A DNA stretch of 22,219 bases, taken from NCBI GenBank assembly GCA_016930515.1, contig JAFGGO010000155.1:1-22219 (forward strand), given 5' to 3'. How positions within the stretch are numbered: position 1 is the first letter of the stretch; the number at the start of each line of letters is the position of its first letter. The stretch is from Promethearchaeota archaeon. Lineage in GTDB: Archaea > Asgardarchaeota > Lokiarchaeia > Sigyniarchaeales > SOKP01. The notes under the pieces are model-generated. The model had not been told where the DNA came from and ran no database searches. It worked only from the letters and a program-made list of their open reading frames with translations. The position numbers and the translations under genes are program-made. Below are positions 1,198 to 13,597 of the stretch, in pieces.

Positions 1198-2102
1198 AAT
1201 CGCAAAGTGAAATATTAAAGGAAGAAGTAGCCATAGAAAAACAAGAAGCGGGAATTAGAAGAAATTTGACTCAAATCGCAGATACGATTGTATTTGACCT
1301 CCAAAAGAATCTCAGGATTTTTATGATCATGTTTCTGGCATTTTTGGTTATTTTTATACTTTCTTTTGTTATTCAGGAATTACAATACATGCAAGATGTG
1401 CCCTTACCTGATGATCCAATCGATTACATGCAATCATACCTGAGTTTTTTCGGATTCATGATAATGTTGAGTTCGGCATTCTTAGCAGGTTCGATCATCG
1501 CAGAAGACTTTCAAAAGCAAACATCTAATTTGATATTTCCCAAGATTAGCAAGATTCGCTTGTTTATAGGGAGGACTATTTCAAGATACACGATGTCAGC
1601 GTGCATAATAAGTTTTTATTACTTTCTAATCAGCCTAGTTACATTTATGCAATATGAAGAAACGCCCGTGATTCTGTGGAATTCCCTGGGATGGGCATTA
1701 TTATACGCATTCATGCTATTTTCGTTTGTTACATTTATGAGTAGCTTTATGAAAAGTACGACATTGAGTATAGGTATAAGTTTGGTCTTCTTGCTTATCG
1801 TTTTCGATATATTAACATCAATCTTAATGTTCTCTGGAAGTACGGAGATCGAGCCATTATTCTCTCTAACCTATTACCAAAATATCATTTCACAATGCAT
1901 GGACATGCCCGATCCGAGGTATATGGAAATAGTTTTTAATATTCCGTTTAATATGGAAGAACTTGGTGATTTATCCATAAGATTTGTAAATTGGTTTACT
2001 CCAAGCGAAATTGGGGCGTTTATAGGAATGGTTTCATTTTCGATAGCGTTTATGAGTTTTGCCATGATATTTTACAGGCGAAGGCAGAGTAAGAGCATAT
2101 AA
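1194..2102 (+). CDS. ABC-2 type transporter permease
   Basis: About 6 hydrophobic TM segments; ATGA start/stop overlap with the ATPase; GGAGG upstream. Confidence 0.85.
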   Translation: MKSQSEILKEEVAIEKQEAGIRRNLTQIADTIVFDLQKNLRIFMIMFLAFLVIFILSFVIQELQYMQDVPLPDDPIDYMQSYLSFFGFMIMLSSAFLAGSIIAEDFQKQTSNLIFPKISKIRLFIGRTISRYTMSACIISFYYFLISLVTFMQYEETPVILWNSLGWALLYAFMLFSFVTFMSSFMKSTTLSIGISLVFLLIVFDILTSILMFSGSTEIEPLFSLTYYQNIISQCMDMPDPRYMEIVFNIPFNMEELGDLSIRFVNWFTPSEIGAFIGMVSFSIAFMSFAMIFYRRRQSKSI

Positions 2103-3884: not shown

Positions 3885-5477
3885 ATGAGTTCAAGAGTAT
3901 TGAAAAAGTTATTTTTAAAAGGAGAAAAATGTTTTGAAGACAAAAAGTACGATAAAGCAATAATGTACTACGATAAAATCTTAGAAAAAGACCCTAACGA
4001 GCCACAAGCGTGGCTAAACAAGGGTGCCGCCTTAACAAACCAAAAGAAATACACAGAAGCGATCCAATGCCTTGCAATTTCGCTCAAACTCAATCCAAAA
4101 GATCCCATAGCTTGGTTCAATAAAGGAATTGCCTTGGAACAATTTGATAAGTACGAGGAGGCTCTTGAATCTTACCACAAAGCCAATTCTTTAGACCCCA
4201 CCTTCGAACATGCCAAGCATTTAGAAGAAGCCTTAACAAAGAAATTAGGTAAAGGCCCTGAAATAGAAGCCTTAGAAAAACTCGAAAAAACCCAAGGCCT
4301 GATGATCGAGCTAAATAACTCATTAATAGAAGAAAAAACACCCTCCGATCAACCGAAAGAAATTGCACATATTGAGGAAACATCCATATCAAAAACTCAG
4401 CCTCAATTACAAGTTAAGGAAGAGGAATTAATCCTCAATAGAAAAATTCACGAAGAGTCAGAAATTGAAGCTCCGAAAATTGACTTATCCTTAATAAACA
4501 AAGAGGAAGAGCTTTACTTTTTAAAGCTAGATAAAGAGGATAAAATTAAAAATCCAGTTGAGGAAGAGATGCTCGAACAAGAAGAACTCATCCTCACAAA
4601 AATCGAGATAGAAAAACCGGAAAATCTTTCAAAGATCAAGGTTGTTGTGAGCGAACAAAATGAGTTTATTCAGAAAGTTCCAAATCAAGGTTTACAAATT
4701 GTGAATCAGTTAAAAGAAGAGAGTGGATTTGATCCTGAAACAGAAGAGAGTGAATCGGGATATAACGAAGAATTTCGCGAAAACGATCCATTCTTTATTG
4801 ATAACGACGCACCAATCGAGATCGAAGAAGATAACATGCGTGGAGCTCATCAGGATAATACTACAACTCCGTCGGGTTTTCCTGCACAAGTATACTCCTC
4901 ATATAATCAAGGTTTAAAGCATGTGAAAGAAGGCGATTATTTAAAAGCAGTTCTCGATTTTAACCAAGCTTTAAGCATTGATAATGGTTTTAGCTGGGCG
5001 TGGTATCATAAGGGATTAACACTATTAAAATTGCTAGATTACGAAGAAGCGATTAAATGTTTTGACGAGGCCATTCAACTCAACCCAAAGCTCATTGAAG
5101 CACTTGCTGGGAAGGGGGCCGCGCTTGGAGCCAGTGGAGATTTAGAAACAGCACTAGAATGCTACGAGGAGGTTCTTTTTCTGAATCCTACAAACCATAA
5201 GGTGTGGTGTAATAAAGGTTTAGCTCTCGCTAAGATTGGAAGGCACGAAGAAGCAATAATGAGCTTCGATGAGGCATTAGCCTTAAATGCGAGCTTGGTT
5301 GATGCGTGGACCGGGAAAGGAGTTGCGTTAGGAATATTAGAAAGGCACGAAGAGGCGATATATTGCTTTGATGAGGCTTTAAAAATTAAACCCGATTTTC
5401 GGGCCGCACGAAAATATAAAGCAATTGAAGAAAAAAATCTTCAAAAAGACATCTTGCTGAGAGAAACTACCGTATAA
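3885..5477 (+). CDS. Tetratricopeptide repeat protein (N- and C-terminal TPR blocks, acidic linker)
   Basis: Repeated 34-aa units of type AWxNKGxAL..L..YEEA...FD.AL.LNP; AGGAG upstream. Confidence 0.9.
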   Translation: MSSRVLKKLFLKGEKCFEDKKYDKAIMYYDKILEKDPNEPQAWLNKGAALTNQKKYTEAIQCLAISLKLNPKDPIAWFNKGIALEQFDKYEEALESYHKANSLDPTFEHAKHLEEALTKKLGKGPEIEALEKLEKTQGLMIELNNSLIEEKTPSDQPKEIAHIEETSISKTQPQLQVKEEELILNRKIHEESEIEAPKIDLSLINKEEELYFLKLDKEDKIKNPVEEEMLEQEELILTKIEIEKPENLSKIKVVVSEQNEFIQKVPNQGLQIVNQLKEESGFDPETEESESGYNEEFRENDPFFIDNDAPIEIEEDNMRGAHQDNTTTPSGFPAQVYSSYNQGLKHVKEGDYLKAVLDFNQALSIDNGFSWAWYHKGLTLLKLLDYEEAIKCFDEAIQLNPKLIEALAGKGAALGASGDLETALECYEEVLFLNPTNHKVWCNKGLALAKIGRHEEAIMSFDEALALNASLVDAWTGKGVALGILERHEEAIYCFDEALKIKPDFRAARKYKAIEEKNLQKDILLRETTV

Positions 5478-5484
5478 TTTGGAT

Positions 5485-6312
5485 TTATTGAAGCGCATCT
5501 TTAATTCCTGATACGAAAGAAACCATATCTTGTTCCATTTTCTCAAAATCGTGCAAATTTCTTTCGACAATGTTGACTATGGCGGAGCCTATTATGACCC
5601 CATTGGCTCCTGCTTGAGTAATTTCAATGACATGATCTGGTTTGGATATTCCAAAACCAACCAAGATCGGAATCACATTATTTGTAAGCTTGCTGATTCT
5701 GTGCATTGTATCTATCGTGATTTGGGATGTTGAAGTTCTTGCTCCCGTGACGCCCATAACAGAAATTAAATAGATGAAACCACGCGCAACTTTGAGAATT
5801 TTTTGAAGTCTTTCTTCCGTAGTCGATGGTGCAATGAGAAATATCAAGCATAGATCGTGCTTTTCGCAGGCTTTTAGTGTTGGACCTGCTTCTTCAATAG
5901 GTAAATCTCCTATCACGATTCCATCAACGCCACTTTCTTTCAATTTTTTAATTGTCTTATCTAACGATTCTTCAATCGTGTCTTCTCCTTGAATAATTAT
6001 GTTGTAATAAGTGAGTACGACTATCGGTTTTTCGGTCTTTTCTCTTATTTTTTTTATAGCATTGAGAGCAACCGCGGTGTTAATTCCCGTCTTAAATGCT
6101 CTTGTATTTGCAGCTTGGATCGTTGGTCCGTCAGCAATGGGATCGGAAAAAGGTATCCCAATCTCTAAAATATCAGCATATGGTTCAATCGCCAAGCATA
6201 ATTTTTTAAATTGCTCAATATTCGGATCTCCTGCAACTAAAAATGGCATGAATTTTTTTGCCTTAGTTCTATTGCTTGTTTCAAATAGCTGTATTATTCT
6301 ATTATATTTCAT
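5485..6312 (-). CDS. trpA: Tryptophan synthase alpha chain
   Basis: LEIGIPFSDPIADGPTIQ (catalytic Glu and Asp), GVTG, VGFGIS, IIGSAIV. Confidence 0.97.
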   Translation of the reverse strand: MKYNRIIQLFETSNRTKAKKFMPFLVAGDPNIEQFKKLCLAIEPYADILEIGIPFSDPIADGPTIQAANTRAFKTGINTAVALNAIKKIREKTEKPIVVLTYYNIIIQGEDTIEESLDKTIKKLKESGVDGIVIGDLPIEEAGPTLKACEKHDLCLIFLIAPSTTEERLQKILKVARGFIYLISVMGVTGARTSTSQITIDTMHRISKLTNNVIPILVGFGISKPDHVIEITQAGANGVIIGSAIVNIVERNLHDFEKMEQDMVSFVSGIKDALQ

Positions 6313-6356
6313 TTTTACTTCTTTTCAATTACAATTTGTTATTAGTTCGAATATAT

Positions 6357-6806
6357 TTATTTCAAACCCATTAATTGGATGAACTCCTCAAGATCGATCA
6401 ATTTATCACCATTAAGATCCACATCTTTTACCATTTCTTCAAGTTGATCGTCTGCAAGGTCCTCTCCAACCTCTATCATTATCTTCTTCAATTCCTCAAC
6501 TGAAATTAATCCACTATCATCATTATCGCATATTTTAAATGCTTCTCTTATTTTTAATTCTCTTGCTCTAGAAAGGACCAGCTTTTTATAAAGCTTGATA
6601 AATTCGTGAAAAGTAATAGTTCCATCTGAATTTACATCTATTTCCATCAATTTTCTAAGCTTTTCATCGTTTGGAAGATTTTCGTTAAGTTCGGCGAAGA
6701 CCTTTCCTACTTCCTTAAAAGATATCGATCCACTTCCGTCCTCATCGCAAAAAGCAAATAATTCTCTTATTCTAAGCAACTCCTCATCTTCAAGTTCATC
6801 ATACAT
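6357..6806 (-). CDS. Calmodulin-like protein with four EF-hands
   Basis: Loops DEDGSGSISFKE, DVNSDGTITFHE, DNDDSGLISVEE and DLNGDKLIDLEE starting at D21, D57, D94 and D130; 149 aa. Confidence 0.93.
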   Translation of the reverse strand: MYDELEDEELLRIRELFAFCDEDGSGSISFKEVGKVFAELNENLPNDEKLRKLMEIDVNSDGTITFHEFIKLYKKLVLSRARELKIREAFKICDNDDSGLISVEELKKIMIEVGEDLADDQLEEMVKDVDLNGDKLIDLEEFIQLMGLK

Positions 6807-6826
6807 TTTTATTTTACCTATTTTTT

Positions 6827-8053
6827 TTAATCTTGAATTTCATATTTTTCAGGATCTATCTTAAATTGAATATGCTCTTTCACGATAGAAAGATCTTTTC
6901 CACCATTCCCACTAAGATTTACAACCACGATATCGTCTTTTTGAAATTCTTTTTTGATTTTTTCTAGATACGCTAATGCGTGAGAACTTTCTAAGGCGGG
7001 AATAATTCCTTCATAAAGCGATAAATTCTTAAATGCCTGTAGAGTTTCTTTATCCGTAGCTTCAGCAACTCTCAACCGATGAAGTTCTTTTAAATAACAA
7101 TGCTCGGGTCCAACACCAGGATAATCAAGACCTGCGCTTATTGAGTGTGTCTCTGTTATGTTCCCATATCCGTCCTGCAATAAGTATTGCATTGCTCCGT
7201 GGAGGACTCCCTTGCGCCCTAAGCCCAAGGCAATGGAATGTTTATTAGTATCTTTACCTTCTCCTGCAGCTTCAACACCGATTAAATTCACGCTATCGTC
7301 ATTTACAAAGTCGTAAAAGGCCCCTATAGCGTTACTTCCTCCTCCTATGCAAGCTATGATGGCATCAGGAAGCTTTCCTTCATATCGCAAAATTTGATCT
7401 TTTATTTCTTTTCCGATTACTCTTTGGAATTCCCGAACAATGAGTGGATATGGATGTGGTCCTACTACCGAGCCCATTAAATAATGTGTATCTTCTAAAT
7501 GGGAAATCCAATAGCGCAATCCCTCATTAACAGCATCCTTTAGCGTTTTTGAACCCGATTTAACTGGTATAACTTCAGCACCCAATAACTGCATCCGAAA
7601 GACATTGTACGCCTGCCTTTTAATATCGATTTCGCCCATAAAGACCTTGGTTTCCATGCCAAAATATGCTCCAGCAATTGCGGTCGCAAAACCATGTTGA
7701 CCAGCACCTGTTTCGGCCACTAGCTTGGTTTTTCCCATCTTTTTTGCGAGAAGCGCTTGACCCATGACATTATTGATTTTATGTGCGCCACCGTGGTTTA
7801 AATCTTCCCGTTTTAAATATACCTTGCATCCGATAAATTCACCATATCTTTTAGCGCGATAGAGTGGTGTGGGGCGTCCACTGTATTCCGAAAGAATTTG
7901 CGAAAATTCTTTTATGAAATTCTCGTCTTTTAAATATCTGAAATATCCCTCTTTGAGCTCGTTTAACGCCGGCATGAGAATTTCTGGAGCGAACATTCCT
8001 CCAAATTCCCCAAACTTTCCCAACTCGTCGGGATGCTTGCCAATATAATCCAT
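6827..8053 (-). CDS. trpB: Tryptophan synthase beta chain (TrpB1 type)
   Basis: [15 protein letters not shown] (PLP Lys), [42 protein letters not shown]. Confidence 0.97.
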
Positions 8054-8060
8054 ATTCTAA

Positions 8061-8714
8061 TTATTCACTTCTATTTTTAATTTTATTAATAACGTTTAAA
8101 AAAGCTTTAATTTTTGTAATGCTTTTAACACCTTTTTCAGATTCTAATGAACTGCTTGCGTCAACACCAAAAGGATTTAAAGAATTAGCCAAAGATTCTA
8201 CATTAAATTCGTTTATACCTCCAGCAAGTATTATTTTAGCCCCAGGCGATCGTTTTAACGCCTCCCTCACGAGATCTAAATCCATAAAACACCCTTCTCC
8301 TTCACTATTATCGAGTAAAAACGAAAATACCTGATCACTATATGAATTAATTACATCAATAATGTAGTTCTTATTGAGTTGATTTATTTTTAAAGCTAGA
8401 ATTATTTTTTTTCTTTTGTAGAGCGATAAAGATTTCAAGTCGTTCAGATCAAAATCAGGGTGCACTTGATATAATGATGCTGGAATATTATTCATAGTTG
8501 CATCAATTTCTTCCACGCTTGAAGGTTTAAATACTATAACGGTGATTAATTTATTCTCTATTTTCTGAAGTAACTTTTTAATTTCGTCTTTTTTTAGATT
8601 TCTTGGAGATGTTGGCACATTATAGACGAAACCCACAGCGTTTGCTCCATTTTGGGCGCATAAATCCACATGTTCAAATTCTTTCAAGCCACATATTTTT
8701 ACATATTCAATCAA
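8061..8714 (-). CDS. trpF: Phosphoribosylanthranilate isomerase
   Basis: VKICG, SPR, LLD, ILAGG, GVDASS.LE..KGVK; TTG start 2 nt after trpC stop. Confidence 0.92.
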   Translation of the reverse strand: MIEYVKICGLKEFEHVDLCAQNGANAVGFVYNVPTSPRNLKKDEIKKLLQKIENKLITVIVFKPSSVEEIDATMNNIPASLYQVHPDFDLNDLKSLSLYKRKKIILALKINQLNKNYIIDVINSYSDQVFSFLLDNSEGEGCFMDLDLVREALKRSPGAKIILAGGINEFNVESLANSLNPFGVDASSSLESEKGVKSITKIKAFLNVINKIKNRSE

Positions 8715-8716
8715 TC

Positions 8717-9511
8717 TTATCCCCTTAATTCCAATATCTTTTGCTTAATATTCTTGGATTGCATGATTGAAGCGCCTATCAAGAAAGCATTGGCACCGCT
8801 TGGTTTCAAGGTTTCAATATCCTGTCGGGAATTTATTCCACTCTCGCTAACTATAACAACATTGTTTCCGCAGAGTTTTCTAATTTTCGGGATTAATTGC
8901 TTTGAAGAGTTTAGATCTATTTCAAGAGTTTTAAGATTTCGATTATTAACTCCGATCAGACTAGGAAAAATTCCAGATTCTATTAATTGTTCGATGTCTT
9001 TCAATTCGCTTTCTTCGTGAATTTCTATAAGTGGTTCCATTCCCTCCTTTAAGATTAACTCGCATATTTCTATTAAATTGCATATAGAATTGATCACAAG
9101 CACATTTGAAGCGCCAAGACGGGAAGCGATTAAAATTTGTATTGGATCCACGACAAAGTCTTTCATTAGACAAGGAAGATGCGTGCTTGATAAAGCACTC
9201 TTAAGATTTCCGTATGAGCCGTAAAAATAATATGGTTCCGTAAGCACGCTTAGTCCGACCGCACCCGCCTCTTCCATTTCTATTGCCACGGATTTGACAT
9301 CGATATTTGATCGTATATTACCTAAAGTTGGAGATGCTGGTTTTATTTCTGAAATTATCGATATCGAATTGTTATTTTTGATCGATTCGCTCAAGCTTCT
9401 TCGTAAAATACTCCTGGGTAAAGTGTCCATAGAATTATAATATTCCCAATCCTCCTTAATAAATGCTTTCCTGCGATTTACGATTTCAGCGATTTTATTC
9501 GATATTGTCAT
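8717..9511 (-). CDS. trpC: Indole-3-glycerol phosphate synthase
   Basis: ISEIKPASPT, LSVLTE, LMKDF, IGVNNRNL, VSESGI, FLIG. Confidence 0.96.
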   Translation of the reverse strand: MTISNKIAEIVNRRKAFIKEDWEYYNSMDTLPRSILRRSLSESIKNNNSISIISEIKPASPTLGNIRSNIDVKSVAIEMEEAGAVGLSVLTEPYYFYGSYGNLKSALSSTHLPCLMKDFVVDPIQILIASRLGASNVLVINSICNLIEICELILKEGMEPLIEIHEESELKDIEQLIESGIFPSLIGVNNRNLKTLEIDLNSSKQLIPKIRKLCGNNVVIVSESGINSRQDIETLKPSGANAFLIGASIMQSKNIKQKILELRG

Positions 9512-9532
9512 ATTCGAGTCCTTTTTTCGGGT

Positions 9533-10588
9533 TTACAATAAATTATTTAATTTTTCTTTTTCTCCACCAGATATTTCAACCAAGTGCTTCAATTTTTCCA
9601 TTGCATTTCCCGATTCTATCGAATTTCTTGCGATAGATACCGCATCTGAAAAGTCAGAAGCTTTATTTGCACTTTTTAAAGCTAGTGCCGCGTTCATTAA
9701 CACCGTATCGTACTTAGCATCTCTTACCCGATTATGTAGTATTTTTATCGCAATCTTTAGATTTTCTTCCATTGTACCAGATAACAATTCCTTCGCAGAA
9801 TATTGCGGTAGGTTGAATTCTTGGCTTGTTATAGCATATGATTCAATTTTACCATCCGTTATTTCCGTTACATAATTAATTCCTACTGGAGCTATCTCGT
9901 CTATACCCAGCGAATTATATACTGTAAACGCGTGTTTCGTACCTAACCCGTTTAGTACATTCGCCATAAGAGGGGCCAATTCTTTTTGAAACACCCCAAG
10001 AATATGATATTTAGCGCTAGCAGGATTTGTTAAAGGCCCTAATATGTTAAACACCGTTCGAATTTTTAACGCTCTCCTCGTGGGCATCGCGTGTTTCATG
10101 GCAGGGTGGAATAGGGGTGCAAACATGAATCCTATTCCCACTTTTTCTATGCATTCTCTAACGCCTTCGGGAGGCAAGTTTATTTTAACACCCAATCCCT
10201 CTAATATATCTGCACTTCCACATTTGCTTGTTACAGCACGATTGCCATGCTTTGCTACTGGAACACCTGCTCCAGCTACAACTAATGCGGATATTGTACT
10301 TATATTGAAGGTTTTTATTTTATCGCCACCTGTACCGCAAGTATCCAATAATTCACCTTCAACAGCAGGATTGATCTTGCTTGAAAATTCTCGCATGATT
10401 CGAGCAAATCCCGTAATTTCTTCAGACGATTCTCCCTTCATGCTTAAACCAGTTAAAAACGCCCCAAGCTGAGATTCTTGAACCTTGCCCGTCATTATGT
10501 CCCTCATAACATTTTCTGCTTCATATATTGACAAATTTTCTTTGCATGTTATTTTCCTTAAAGCGTTTACTATCGTTTCTTCTTCCAT
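9533..10588 (-). CDS. trpD: Anthranilate phosphoribosyltransferase
   Basis: DTCGTGGD, FNIST, VAKHGNR, GSADILE, RTVFNILGPLTNPA; AAGGA SD at 10599-10603. Confidence 0.97.
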   Translation of the reverse strand: MEEETIVNALRKITCKENLSIYEAENVMRDIMTGKVQESQLGAFLTGLSMKGESSEEITGFARIMREFSSKINPAVEGELLDTCGTGGDKIKTFNISTISALVVAGAGVPVAKHGNRAVTSKCGSADILEGLGVKINLPPEGVRECIEKVGIGFMFAPLFHPAMKHAMPTRRALKIRTVFNILGPLTNPASAKYHILGVFQKELAPLMANVLNGLGTKHAFTVYNSLGIDEIAPVGINYVTEITDGKIESYAITSQEFNLPQYSAKELLSGTMEENLKIAIKILHNRVRDAKYDTVLMNAALALKSANKASDFSDAVSIARNSIESGNAMEKLKHLVEISGGEKEKLNNLL

Positions 10589-10693
10589 ATTAACCGATTC
10601 CTTTTATATTTACTCGTGATTCGTTATAATATTGGATGTCAATAATTAAAACGCACTTTTAGAAGTAAAAGCTGTTAAATCGTAAGAATTAAT

Positions 10694-10746
10694 AAATAGC
10701 GTGAAAAATAGCTTATTCCATTGAAATAGCGTTACTGCCAACGCCA
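10694..10746 (-). promoter_or_regulatory. Putative trp attenuator region (overlapping hairpins plus U-rich tracts)
   Basis: Hairpin UGGCGUUG-GCAG-UAACGCUA (10746-10727) overlaps hairpin GCUAUUUC-AAU-GGAAUAAGC (10730-10711), which is followed by UAUUUUUC; three GCUAUUU repeats. Confidence 0.5.
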
Positions 10747-10788
10747 AGGCCACTGCCAACCGAAGTGATTTGCGAACGAGATTGTCAT
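10732..10788 (-). CDS. trpL: Putative trp operon leader peptide MTISFANHFGWQWPWRWQ (18 aa, 4 Trp)
   Basis: ATG at 10788, TAA at 10734-10732, four in-frame TGG codons; AAGGA 8 nt upstream; ends 143 nt before trpD on the same strand. Confidence 0.85.
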   Translation of the reverse strand: MTISFANHFGWQWPWRWQ

Positions 10789-10831
10789 GAATCTTATCCT
10801 TAGTGTGGTTGTTTTTTATAATAATAAATTA

Positions 10832-10850
10832 CATATAAACCATTTGAATT
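10832..10850 (-). promoter_or_regulatory. Putative archaeal TATA box (TTTATATG) and BRE region for the trp leader/operon
   Basis: TTTATATG at 10839-10832 would put the TSS near 10810, just upstream of the leader SD; AT-rich context weakens specificity. Confidence 0.5.
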
Positions 10851-10865
10851 ACTCTTAATTAGCAA

Positions 10866-10942
10866 TTCAGATTACAGAAGGGAATAAAATGGGAATTTTC
10901 AAACAAAGATTTATAAAAATATATTAATTTCTTCAGATTACA
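10866..10942. repeat. 11-bp direct repeat TTCAGATTACA x2
   Basis: Exact copies at 10866-10876 and 10932-10942. Confidence 0.7.
10901..10917 (+). promoter_or_regulatory. Putative BRE/TATA (AAACAAAGA-TTTATAAA) for a + strand non-coding transcript
   Basis: Purine-rich run then TTTATAAA at 10910-10917, upstream of the structured region and the C/D sRNA. Confidence 0.4.
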
Positions 10943-11054
10943 ACTCATAGCTCTTAAATCGATCAAAATGAAGTAAAAATCATTAGGCCGGACAATGGAA
11001 TGGAGAATCCTTGGGATTGGCTCCACATTCGTCTAAAATTAAGTAGGATCACAC

Positions 11055-11116
11055 CCTAATGATGATAATTAAAAAAACTGAAAGATGCAAATGAAGAATT
11101 CCTCTCGTTCTGAAGG
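11055..11116 (+). ncRNA. Archaeal C/D-box 2'-O-methylation guide sRNA
   Basis: C ATGATGA 11059-65, 12 nt, D' CTGA 11078-81, 9 nt, C' ATGAAGA 11091-97, 12 nt, D CTGA 11110-13; terminal CCT/AGG stem with k-turn geometry; D guide antisense to conserved 23S sequence. Confidence 0.85.
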
Positions 11117-11148
11117 TAGAGACGAATTTCCGTTAAATTATAATAACT

Positions 11149-11505
11149 TTATTTTTTTGAGTCAAATACCTCTTTTAACAAGCTTGGAACTTTTTTTTCG
11201 GTTATATCTCCAACTTCAGTAATCAACATGTATTTTTTATCTTGTTCCACTCCGTCTAATACTCGATGAGGATCGAGAATTCCATCGAAAAACCCAAATT
11301 TGACGTGTTGATTTGGATCCTTCTTAATAAAACAAACTTTTCCATCTTTTTCGTAAATAGGAATATCATTTCTAAAATTTTCTCCTATATCTGGAATTAA
11401 ATCAAAAATAAGCGCCCTAAGCTCCTCAATAATCGCTCGAAACGGGGGAGGTACCTTTCGTATGTATTCGATAGCGTCCATATTAATATTTGCCATTTTA
11501 CCCAC
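11149..11505 (-). CDS. DUF1801 (YdhG-like) domain protein
   Basis: Pattern YI...P...R.I.EELR.LI....PD..E.....P.Y...G..C.I.....HVKFGF; true start may be ATG 11496. Confidence 0.75.
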   Translation of the reverse strand: MGKMANINMDAIEYIRKVPPPFRAIIEELRALIFDLIPDIGENFRNDIPIYEKDGKVCFIKKDPNQHVKFGFFDGILDPHRVLDGVEQDKKYMLITEVGDITEKKVPSLLKEVFDSKK

Positions 11506-11552
11506 ATATAATTATTTCATCGAGTTAAAGGTCTAAAGTCGAATATTAAAGC

Positions 11553-11867
11553 CTAATTGTTATTCCTATCAAATTCTAGTAAAGCAAAAATTCCGGGATT
11601 ACCGTATTCCTTTAATAATTCCATGCCATTCGCTTTAATTGAAGGAATACTGGGATCAACAACTATCCTTGTTTTATTTGATCTAACGAGCACTGCCACG
11701 CAGTCCATCTCATCTAAATTAACGAAGGCGAATATTCCCTTTTCTGAATCGTATTCGAACTTCTCCGATCCAATAGCCAAGACTATCCAATTTACGCCGT
11801 CAAAATGAATCGAATGGCCTATTTCTGGTATGAACATGGTGTTGCCCAGCAAATTATATATCGACAT
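11553..11867 (-). CDS. Hypothetical protein
   Basis: 104-aa ORF with protein-like composition, co-oriented with neighbours. Confidence 0.6.
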   Translation of the reverse strand: MSIYNLLGNTMFIPEIGHSIHFDGVNWIVLAIGSEKFEYDSEKGIFAFVNLDEMDCVAVLVRSNKTRIVVDPSIPSIKANGMELLKEYGNPGIFALLEFDRNNN

Positions 11868-12011: not shown

Positions 12012-12731
12012 TTAATTCGGCCTAAAACTTTTACCTAACAAGTATGTTCCTATTACGAGTATGAATCGAGGAATAAAGACAAAGGCGTGAATAAAATGAC
12101 CTGGAACAACTGTATCCGCTAAAACAACACATCCAAAAATTGGGATTGCAATAATTAGAAAATTAGTTCTTTCCTTTAATTTTCCCGTAGAAAGCTTCCT
12201 AAACTTATGCCACCCCAATGCACAAATTATAGTTGAGATCATCGTTTGTAGCCATATAAATACGAAAAAGAACGACATTGGATTAACCCAATCGTCGTAT
12301 ACTTCGTTAATAGAATCAAGTCTGGAAATATGGATTGCATATGGGAATTCTATAAAAAAAGTGATATAATATATCACAGATATGATTATTGCAACGATTA
12401 ATATATGCTTTTTATTCATTGGGCTTCCTACTAGATCCCAAGAGGAACTCGTAATTGCAAAGGATCCAATAGGAAGAGTACAATAGGAAAAAAAAAAGAA
12501 TACAGATCTTATCCAAGGAGCATTTTGTCCAAGAAACAAAACCGATAAAAAAGAAATGCTAATTCCTGACCAACCTAAAGCCATAGATAAATAGATCATC
12601 ATTCCGTTAATATATATGGAATTTTTATGATTCCTATATCGAAAAATATCTCGAATAAAAAAAATCCAAGCTATTACAACGATTACAAATGCGCTAAGTC
12701 CATTGACCCATGATAGATACACATTTGTCAT
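12012..12731 (-). CDS. Seven-TM membrane protein (paralog 1)
   Basis: Seven hydrophobic segments; shares NG.SA, RD..RYR, APWI, VYDDWVN and RT motifs with the neighbour. Confidence 0.85.
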   Translation of the reverse strand: MTNVYLSWVNGLSAFVIVVIAWIFFIRDIFRYRNHKNSIYINGMMIYLSMALGWSGISISFLSVLFLGQNAPWIRSVFFFFSYCTLPIGSFAITSSSWDLVGSPMNKKHILIVAIIISVIYYITFFIEFPYAIHISRLDSINEVYDDWVNPMSFFFVFIWLQTMISTIICALGWHKFRKLSTGKLKERTNFLIIAIPIFGCVVLADTVVPGHFIHAFVFIPRFILVIGTYLLGKSFRPN

Positions 12732-12874
12732 AGATAATTATTATCTCAATATCATATATATTTATTTCCTCAACATACAATATGATAGAGAAATTCTTTT
12801 TTATCTTTATCAGATTAAAATAAGTCGGAACTAATTATATAAAGGACTTTTTAGTTTAATTTAAAAAACCCAAA

Positions 12875-13597
12875 TTAGTGTTCAGCAGTAGGTTTATATC
12901 CCTGGCTTAACAAAATAAGCCCGAGAACCTCTATAAATCTCGTAAGGAATAAAGACGAAAAGATTAAGTAATCTGGGACTGTTGCATCAGTCGTAAATCC
13001 AATTCCAATTAAAAACGATGATATTAATATGAGTTTGGTTCGCTTTTTTATTGTTCCTGAAGATCTTTTTATCATGTGATAAATACCCATTATGGCGCTA
13101 AATCCCGGTACAGTCATTAAAACGAGTGAAACTATATAAAATAAGGACCTTATATTAACCCAATCATCATAGACCGAGTAAGGTAATTCAAGTGAGTTAT
13201 GACGGATAGCGTCTGAATATGTGGAAAATAACACGATATAATAGATAATGGAAAGGATTGCAGAAATTAACATTATTATTTTCATTTTTTCAGGTTTTCC
13301 GTCCCACGCACCTTTATTAATTACAAAAGCCACAAAAGGAAGTCCAGAAAAGGAAAAATAACCTGCCACACCCACTATCCAGGGCGCAGTATATCCAAGT
13401 GCAATGACTGAAATGAAAGAGAGAACCACACCTATGAAACTAAATGCGGTCACGATATATATGACCATACCATAAATATATAAAGTGATGTTATAAAACC
13501 TATACCTGTATAAATCCCTTAAGAATAAGAACAAGGCGGTTATAAAGAGTACTAAAGCACTAAAACCATTGATAATGTTAATTAAAATATTCGTCAT
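12875..13597 (-). CDS. Seven-TM membrane protein (paralog 2)
   Basis: Colinear with the 12012-12731 product, 240 vs 239 aa. Confidence 0.85.
   Translation of the reverse strand: MTNILINIINGFSALVLFITALFLFLRDLYRYRFYNITLYIYGMVIYIVTAFSFIGVVLSFISVIALGYTAPWIVGVAGYFSFSGLPFVAFVINKGAWDGKPEKMKIIMLISAILSIIYYIVLFSTYSDAIRHNSLELPYSVYDDWVNIRSLFYIVSLVLMTVPGFSAIMGIYHMIKRSSGTIKKRTKLILISSFLIGIGFTTDATVPDYLIFSSLFLTRFIEVLGLILLSQGYKPTAEH

Follow-up and report, generated by a model that had tools for sequence, protein, structure and literature searches.

A calmodulin-like gene between trpB and trpA in a Lokiarchaeial tryptophan cluster

In a Lokiarchaeial genome, the genes for the two subunits of tryptophan synthase, trpB and trpA, are separated by an open reading frame resembling calmodulin. 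This raises the question of whether a Ca2+ sensor is a partner of the enzyme or a passenger on its messenger. The window, by which we mean the whole 22,219-nt stretch of DNA that was analysed, carries on its minus strand six co-oriented genes in the order trpD-C-F-B-x-A behind a Trp-rich leader:

10732..10788, minus strand: Trp-rich leader peptide upstream of trpD, MTISFANHFGWQWPWRWQ followed by a stop; 18 codons, four of them Trp
9533-10588, minus strand: trpD (Pfam Glycos_transf_3 and its N-terminal domain)
8717-9511, minus strand: trpC (Pfam IGPS)
8061-8714, minus strand: trpF (Pfam PRAI)
6827..8053, minus strand: trpB, 408 aa (Pfam PALP, 1.8e-40), 84-93% identical to the TrpB of relatives
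6807..6826, minus strand: spacer between trpB and the calmodulin-like gene, 20 nt, with a Shine-Dalgarno-like AGGT 10 nt before the ATG
6357..6806, minus strand: calmodulin-like gene, 149 aa, ATG start, stop codon 6357-6359, four EF-hands (ORF list and Pfam)
6313..6356, minus strand: spacer between the calmodulin-like gene and trpA, 44 nt
5485..6312, minus strand: trpA, 275 aa (Pfam Trp_syntA, 1.2e-80)
5389..5447, minus strand: probable end of the transcription unit, with T5 at 5443-5447, T7 at 5431-5437 and a GC hairpin with T-tail at 5405-5389

The 149-aa reading frame matches Pfam EF-hand_7 (4.9e-30) and, in four stretches, EF-hand_1, with scores far above the cut-offs for the EF-hand superfamily (PF13499, 104.1 bits against 30; PF00036, 84.8 bits against 25.4). 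It is single-copy and the sole EF-hand_7 gene of the 4.0-Mb genome. Compared with its orthologues it has a dN/dS of 0.09-0.18 at saturated synonymous sites, similar to trpF, and is thus a real gene under purifying selection; dN/dS is equal in the trp-linked and the other copies of its family, with no shift in constraint. Outside that family its best matches are all eukaryotic, as might be expected of an assembly chimera or of eukaryotic contamination that had brought a foreign reading frame into an archaeal genome. The chance of this is negligible, however: four other assemblies repeat the gene order with archaeal genes on both sides, the trees of TrpA and of the calmodulin-like gene agree, and both GC (0.336, against 0.342 for the window) and GC3 are host-like. 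Because the same order recurs, selection is evident and composition matches the host, the reading frame is not an artefact, and we reject contamination or chimerism on the synteny and the host-like composition. The gene also lies more than 5 kb from both ends of the window. The original prediction had raised the possibility of a chimeric assembly, and this caveat can be set aside.

We then asked what kind of protein the gene encodes. The ORF list, Pfam and an alignment with calmodulin all agree on 149 residues with EF loops opening at D21, D57, D94 and D130, as had been read from the DNA beforehand:

6711..6746, minus strand: EF-hand loop 1, residues 21-32, DEDGSGSISFKE; canonical ligands D1, D3, S5, G6, I8 and E12
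6603..6638, minus strand: EF-hand loop 2, residues 57-68, DVNSDGTITFHE; D1, N3, D5 and E12 invariant in 52 family members
6492..6527, minus strand: EF-hand loop 3, residues 94-105, DNDDSGLISVEE; canonical, with Gly at position 6
6384..6419, minus strand: EF-hand loop 4, residues 130-141, DLNGDKLIDLEE; D1, N3, D5, D9 and E12, with Lys rather than Gly at position 6

Loop positions 1, 3, 5 and 12 hold the ligand residues D/D/S/E in EF1 and EF3 and D/N/D/E in EF2 and EF4. All 52 family members have D1 in every loop and E12 in EF2-EF4; at E12 of EF1, 51 of the 52 have Glu and one has Asp. Gly at position 6 is present in EF1-EF3 of the window protein and is replaced by Lys in EF4. Most other family members lack Gly6 in both EF3 and EF4, most having K, Q or R at this position of EF3, where the trp-linked sub-clade has the canonical Gly. 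EF loops without Gly6 can still bind Ca2+. From these ligand residues, Ca2+ binding by the protein is predicted.

The arrangement of the loops is that of the calmodulin-type (CTER-like) sensors: about 149 aa in two lobes, with four loops at spacings of 36/37/36. AlphaFold2 models the protein as a dumbbell (pLDDT 78.8), in which residues 66-93 form one unbroken helix. When this model was used as a Foldseek query, calmodulins were the top matches (36-38% identity, TM up to 0.81), followed by centrins (33-34% identity, TM 0.80) and troponin C (33%). As modelled, then, the protein has the architecture of calmodulin, its two lobes being connected through a long central helix.

A phmmer search of the PDB likewise returned calmodulin as the best match (E about 1e-30), with residues 1-148 aligned to residues 1-148 without a gap. 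The two proteins have the motifs IREAF, GE.L.D and EEF.Q.M in common, and identity to canonical calmodulins is 34-40%, which bears out the gapless alignment at roughly 35-40% identity that the original prediction had given. Vertebrate CALM1 and Paramecium calmodulin (PDB 1EXR/1CLM) have the same 149 residues and the same loop starts (21, 57, 94 and 130, Met1 counted), and the window protein also resembles calmodulin in its dumbbell fold, long central helix, acidic pI (4.35) and want of Trp. The differences foreseen from the sequence, a basic and hydrophobic linker, a Met-poor N-lobe and Lys at position 6 of EF4, all hold in the alignment. Calmodulin's acidic, flexible linker KDTDSEEE is replaced by the basic, hydrophobic KKLVLSRARELK; there are 5 Met against 9-10, those of the C-lobe being kept (M110, M125, M146) whereas the N-lobe positions have become F37, L72, Y73 and V77; and Cys stands in place of calmodulin's Phe before EF1 and EF3. 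Between canonical calmodulins of different eukaryotes, identity is much higher than 34-40%. Given the low identity, the placement outside a 36-row calmodulin cluster in our tree (see below), the Met-poor N-lobe and the non-acidic linker, sequence comparison indicates a protein that is calmodulin-like in architecture and is not a calmodulin orthologue.

Other EF-hand proteins are less close. Centrins have an N-terminal extension, and troponin C has an N-helix and a longer linker. The window protein has none of these; human centrin 2 (PDB 2GGM), mouse centrin 1 (5D43) and troponin C share its two-lobe four-EF-hand fold and score slightly below calmodulin. Actinobacterial and cyanobacterial calmodulin-like proteins are also prokaryotic, with calmodulin-like EF-hand pairs, which are mostly fused to other domains (PMC7016017); the window protein, in contrast, stands alone and is collinear with calmodulin. 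No named bacterial protein occurred among the profile matches at E<1e-8 or among the ten phmmer matches checked by name.

The protein belongs to a Lokiarchaeial family of about 50 distinct sequences of 148-154 aa, which are named 'EF-hand domain-containing protein' at NCBI and show 42-61% identity to the window protein. An alignment of 14 members (A1) has no internal indels, and three linker residues are missing from the divergent member P0131. A profile search with A1 returned about 45 clusters of 148-154-aa proteins at 180 bits or more, the named ones being Loki-type Asgard proteins; below a gap in score there followed only eukaryotic calmodulins and calmodulin-like proteins, at 160 bits or less. 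A phmmer search over 1.8 billion representatives gave the same pattern, with eukaryotic proteins as the nearest outside relatives, and the structural look-alikes in the Atlas were all eukaryotic. The eukaryotic affinity that had been proposed for the gene is therefore upheld, since its nearest relatives outside the Lokiarchaeia are all eukaryotic. Among 400 Asgard genomes the tight family is present in 10, all in three genera of one family: 2 of 6 genomes in g1 (the window's own counted), 4 of 4 in g5 and 4 of 10 in g10. Three further genomes of the 400 gave weak, distant EF-hand matches only.

A quick maximum-likelihood tree of 118 rows, which holds no centrin, calcineurin B, myosin light chain or named bacterial EF-hand protein, recovers the Lokiarchaeial family as monophyletic (SH-aLRT 98, stem 0.56) and outside the canonical calmodulin cluster, on a poorly supported backbone. 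A phylogeny had been proposed with the original prediction. Two histories can be weighed against these data. The family could be an ancient Asgard gene, directly ancestral to the calmodulin-type proteins of eukaryotes and inherited vertically as a 'eukaryotic signature protein'. In favour of this, no known phylum is closer to eukaryotes than that of the host, calmodulin can be aligned from end to end without a gap, and the monophyletic family (SH-aLRT 98) is not nested in any one eukaryotic group. We nevertheless consider this unlikely. The tight family is confined to 10 of 400 genomes, from three genera of a single family, and vertical descent would imply a great number of losses; the tree that might speak for it has a weak backbone and no centrin, calcineurin B or bacterial EF-hand outgroups; and published work derives the calmodulin-like EF-hands of eukaryotes from bacteria rather than from Asgard archaea (PMC7016017). 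In view of the narrow spread and the all-eukaryotic nearest matches, we favour the reading that this archaeal family would have acquired the gene long ago from a eukaryote.

Elsewhere in the family the gene has other neighbours. In three g10 genomes (G044-G046) and in P0131, from a contig of Logan SRR28370465, it comes immediately after a co-oriented proS, at a distance of 23-44 nt, and proS is one or two genes from the family member at L007 and L052. The vicinity of proS is probably the older neighbourhood of the family. Within g5, a nikR-like gene (RHH_1 and NikR_C) precedes it in G035-G037, three of the four genomes, and this neighbourhood may be metal-related. The copies in G038, L050 and L051 are flanked by other genes or are solitary. 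The copies linked to proS and nikR are located as follows:

L041 6479-8447, L042 7986-9966 and L047 629-2610: proS-linked copies, genus g10
L043 2397-7786, L045 5731-11057 and L048 1134-5687: nikR-linked copies, genus g5

A 665-aa P-type ATPase adjoins the nikR-like regulator in G035 and G036, and the G037 contig stops just past nikR. After the gene in g5 come two paralogous proteins of about 240 aa and then one of about 220 aa, with no Pfam match. The window also has two tandem paralogous multi-pass membrane proteins of about 240 aa without a Pfam match (12012-12731 and 12875-13597, minus strand); a relationship between these (12012-13597) and the g5 pair was considered and rejected, as they do not cluster at E 1e-8.

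How the gene came to lie between trpB and trpA can be read from the relatives. The order trpB-x-trpA recurs in GCA_016839425.1, GCA_048938565.1, Logan SRR30758826 and Logan SRR11241199, so that the position, for which synteny in other Lokiarchaeia had been suggested as a check, is not unique to this genome. These four assemblies represent two further species, giving three diverged species with that of the window, and the orthologues are 79% and 61% identical to the window protein. The downstream TPR and HisRS neighbours are shared as well, wherever a contig extends that far. In a TrpA tree the three insertion-carrying operons form a clade (100/99) nested among members of the genus that lack the gene, which confines the trp position to one sub-clade of the window's genus; in the tree of the calmodulin-like protein the three trp-linked copies also form a clade (99), with the same internal order. 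The gene was not found in the same-genus genomes G031 (90% complete), G032 (96%) and G034. trpB and trpA are 31 nt apart in G032, and trpF-trpB-trpA is contiguous in G032, G036, G045 and G046. Because the trp-linked copies form one clade in both trees and relatives keep trpB and trpA adjacent, the simplest account of these sequences would be a single relocation into the junction, with vertical inheritance thereafter.

The junction of trpB and trpA appears to be easily rearranged. In G038 the gap is 173 nt with no gene between (L053 1316-1488), and this spacer holds a short ORF ending in VIVKLSGSG, like the C-terminal region of TrpB, which is perhaps the scar of a duplication. In G034 (L025 213-2331) trpE comes after trpA and no trpB precedes trpA, so that trp order is fluid in this family. 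Insertions at the same junction have bacterial precedents: F-B-X-A split trp operons of Burkholderia and Flavobacterium, in which unrelated genes lie between trpB and trpA, are described by Kagan et al. 2008 (PMC2395257; after Xie et al. 2003), and the inserted genes are discussed there as possible 'morons'. The window resembles these operons in that an unrelated gene of the same strand, not known to act in Trp synthesis, stands precisely between trpB and trpA, and differs from them in its Asgard archaeal host, its calmodulin-like EF-hand insert and its Trp-rich leader peptide.

We next consider how the inserted gene would be expressed. The spacers measure exactly 20 nt on the trpB side and 44 nt on the trpA side, with all three genes on one strand, which confirms the first reading of the locus, as does the absence from either spacer of a run of at least five T or a terminator-like hairpin. 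A run of at least five T is the usual archaeal termination signal, and terminator-like signals (T5, T7 and the GC hairpin) occur only after trpA. The Shine-Dalgarno-like motif recurs in the orthologous spacers after trpB (GAGGT in 2 of 3 inspected; GAGGT or AGTGA overall). The Trp leader named in the original prediction corresponds to the leader ORF upstream of trpD. In the window this ends in GWQWPWRWQ before the stop (10732-10788, minus strand), and in L002 a counterpart upstream of trpD ends in CWQWPWCWQ (about 2030-2089, plus strand); since the L002 relative carries the orthologue of 61% identity, the leader is conserved in insertion-carrying genomes. The only chorismate-binding (TrpE-type) gene of the genome is on another contig (G000 contig C34 18989-19744), so the leader-controlled cluster is without trpE, and no trpG was seen in it. 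A search of Rfam over 5000-11600 found no known RNA family. Sites in a sigma-70 promoter scan were no more numerous than in shuffled sequence, the sigma-70 model not being meaningful for an archaeon.

The gene could instead have its own promoter in the 3' end of trpB and be independent of the leader. Internal promoters are common in archaeal operons, AT-rich coding DNA offers many TATA-like sites, and the family members at L050, L051 and L007 have upstream regions of 140-210 nt of their own. Against this, read-through from trpB would be expected anyway, given the 20-nt spacer, the Shine-Dalgarno-like motif and the lack of an upstream terminator; moreover, the family also sits close behind proS, at 41-44 nt in three g10 genomes and 23 nt in P0131. 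A separate promoter therefore has only a small chance of accounting for expression here. Co-orientation, the short spacers, the lack of a terminator before trpA and a position kept in relatives all mark the gene as a probable member of the operon. Because of the 20- and 44-nt spacers, the AGGT motif and termination signals only after trpA, it is most probably co-transcribed with the trp genes under the leader, as far as the nucleotide sequence can tell.

Does shared transcription reflect a shared function? The original prediction had linked Ca2+ signalling to tryptophan synthase or indole flux, the protein binding TrpA or TrpB in a Ca2+-dependent manner and tuning the alpha-beta complex or the channelling of indole. 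Some observations agree with such a role. The position between the subunit genes has been kept under purifying selection in three diverged species, and the persistence of the insertion while synonymous sites became saturated fits inertia and also a selected link to Trp metabolism. The authors who discuss the bacterial F-B-X-A operons raise the possibility that the inserted genes aid Trp synthesis (PMC2395257). TrpB also has a short C-terminal extension only in the insertion-carrying operons: an extra tail of 4-8 residues (window 6827-6850, minus strand), for example PEKI, is present in all three and absent in G032, and could be a contact site or mere drift.

The distribution of the genes argues the other way. 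An accessory subunit would be expected to accompany its enzyme, and the calmodulin-like gene and TrpA/TrpB do not co-occur across genomes: G031 has TrpA, and G032 has both TrpA and TrpB, with no calmodulin-like gene found in either, whereas g5 and g10 carry the family far from the trp genes with trpB and trpA still neighbours. Nor was a clade-specific amphipathic or IQ-like segment seen in TrpA or TrpB, and the trp-linked copies are under the same constraint as those found elsewhere. A complex prediction for TrpB, TrpA, the calmodulin-like protein and four Ca2+ scored 0.00, below the mark, which speaks neither for nor against binding. As the enzyme is found without the protein in close relatives and the protein away from trp elsewhere, no dedicated role in tryptophan synthase is indicated. 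The comparative data thus leave the proposed Ca2+ link unsupported and Ca2+-dependent binding to the enzyme improbable; the protein probably neither belongs to tryptophan synthase as a subunit nor regulates it.

These data allow us to propose a model, which we hold to be moderately probable, in which the gene hitch-hikes on the trp messenger and its product serves as a general Ca2+ sensor or buffer, not as a partner of tryptophan synthase. In the ancestor of one sub-clade the gene would have moved into a trpB-trpA junction of 30-45 nt and then been inherited vertically in that position. As part of the trpD-C-F-B-x-A messenger and behind the Trp-rich leader, it would be expressed at levels that rise and fall with the trp genes. 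In the cytosol, the four loops would take up Ca2+, and hydrophobic pockets would thereby open in which helices of target proteins are held. The trp position itself would be a neutral or expression-driven hitch-hike, like those of the bacterial F-B-X-A trp operons. We place little credence in more far-reaching readings: that relocation was adaptive, giving a sensor induced by Trp starvation through the ribosome-sensed leader that modulates TrpA-TrpB or passes a Ca2+ signal to starvation responses, or that the family is not borrowed and comes from an Asgard stock ancestral to the calmodulin-type proteins of eukaryotes. If the adaptive reading were true, the archaeal lineage that is nearest to eukaryotes would have linked calmodulin-type signalling with amino-acid control.

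Sensors of the calmodulin type, with four EF-hands, count as a hallmark of Ca2+ signalling in eukaryotes. For this reason, and because eukaryotic calmodulin-like EF-hands have been traced to bacteria (PMC7016017), a stand-alone Lokiarchaeial protein collinear with calmodulin is a useful object whether it is borrowed or native, and can reveal the function of such a sensor in cells that lack the eukaryotic targets. The sub-clade with the gene probably on the trp messenger also provides a natural experiment, in which Trp-dependent expression is predicted. A full-text literature search for calmodulin and EF-hand proteins in Asgard archaea found no paper describing this family. The kind of protein is known and trpB-x-trpA insertions have bacterial precedents, so that this is not a new system and the locus is notable rather than revolutionary; the combination, in which an Asgard host carries a calmodulin-like gene within a trp cluster that has a Trp leader, is a neat curiosity that can be tested.

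A further feature of the family is the presence of cysteines beside its loops. Cys occurs just before EF3 in all 14 aligned members (residues 93-99; window 6510-6530, minus strand), and a second Cys is found at EF3 loop position 2 (C-D-C-D-G-N) in 35 of 52. In the trp-linked sub-clade and P0003 a Cys also precedes EF1; the corresponding pre-loop residues of calmodulin are Phe. Judged from these residues, a redox or soft-metal role for the loop-flanking cysteines is conceivable.
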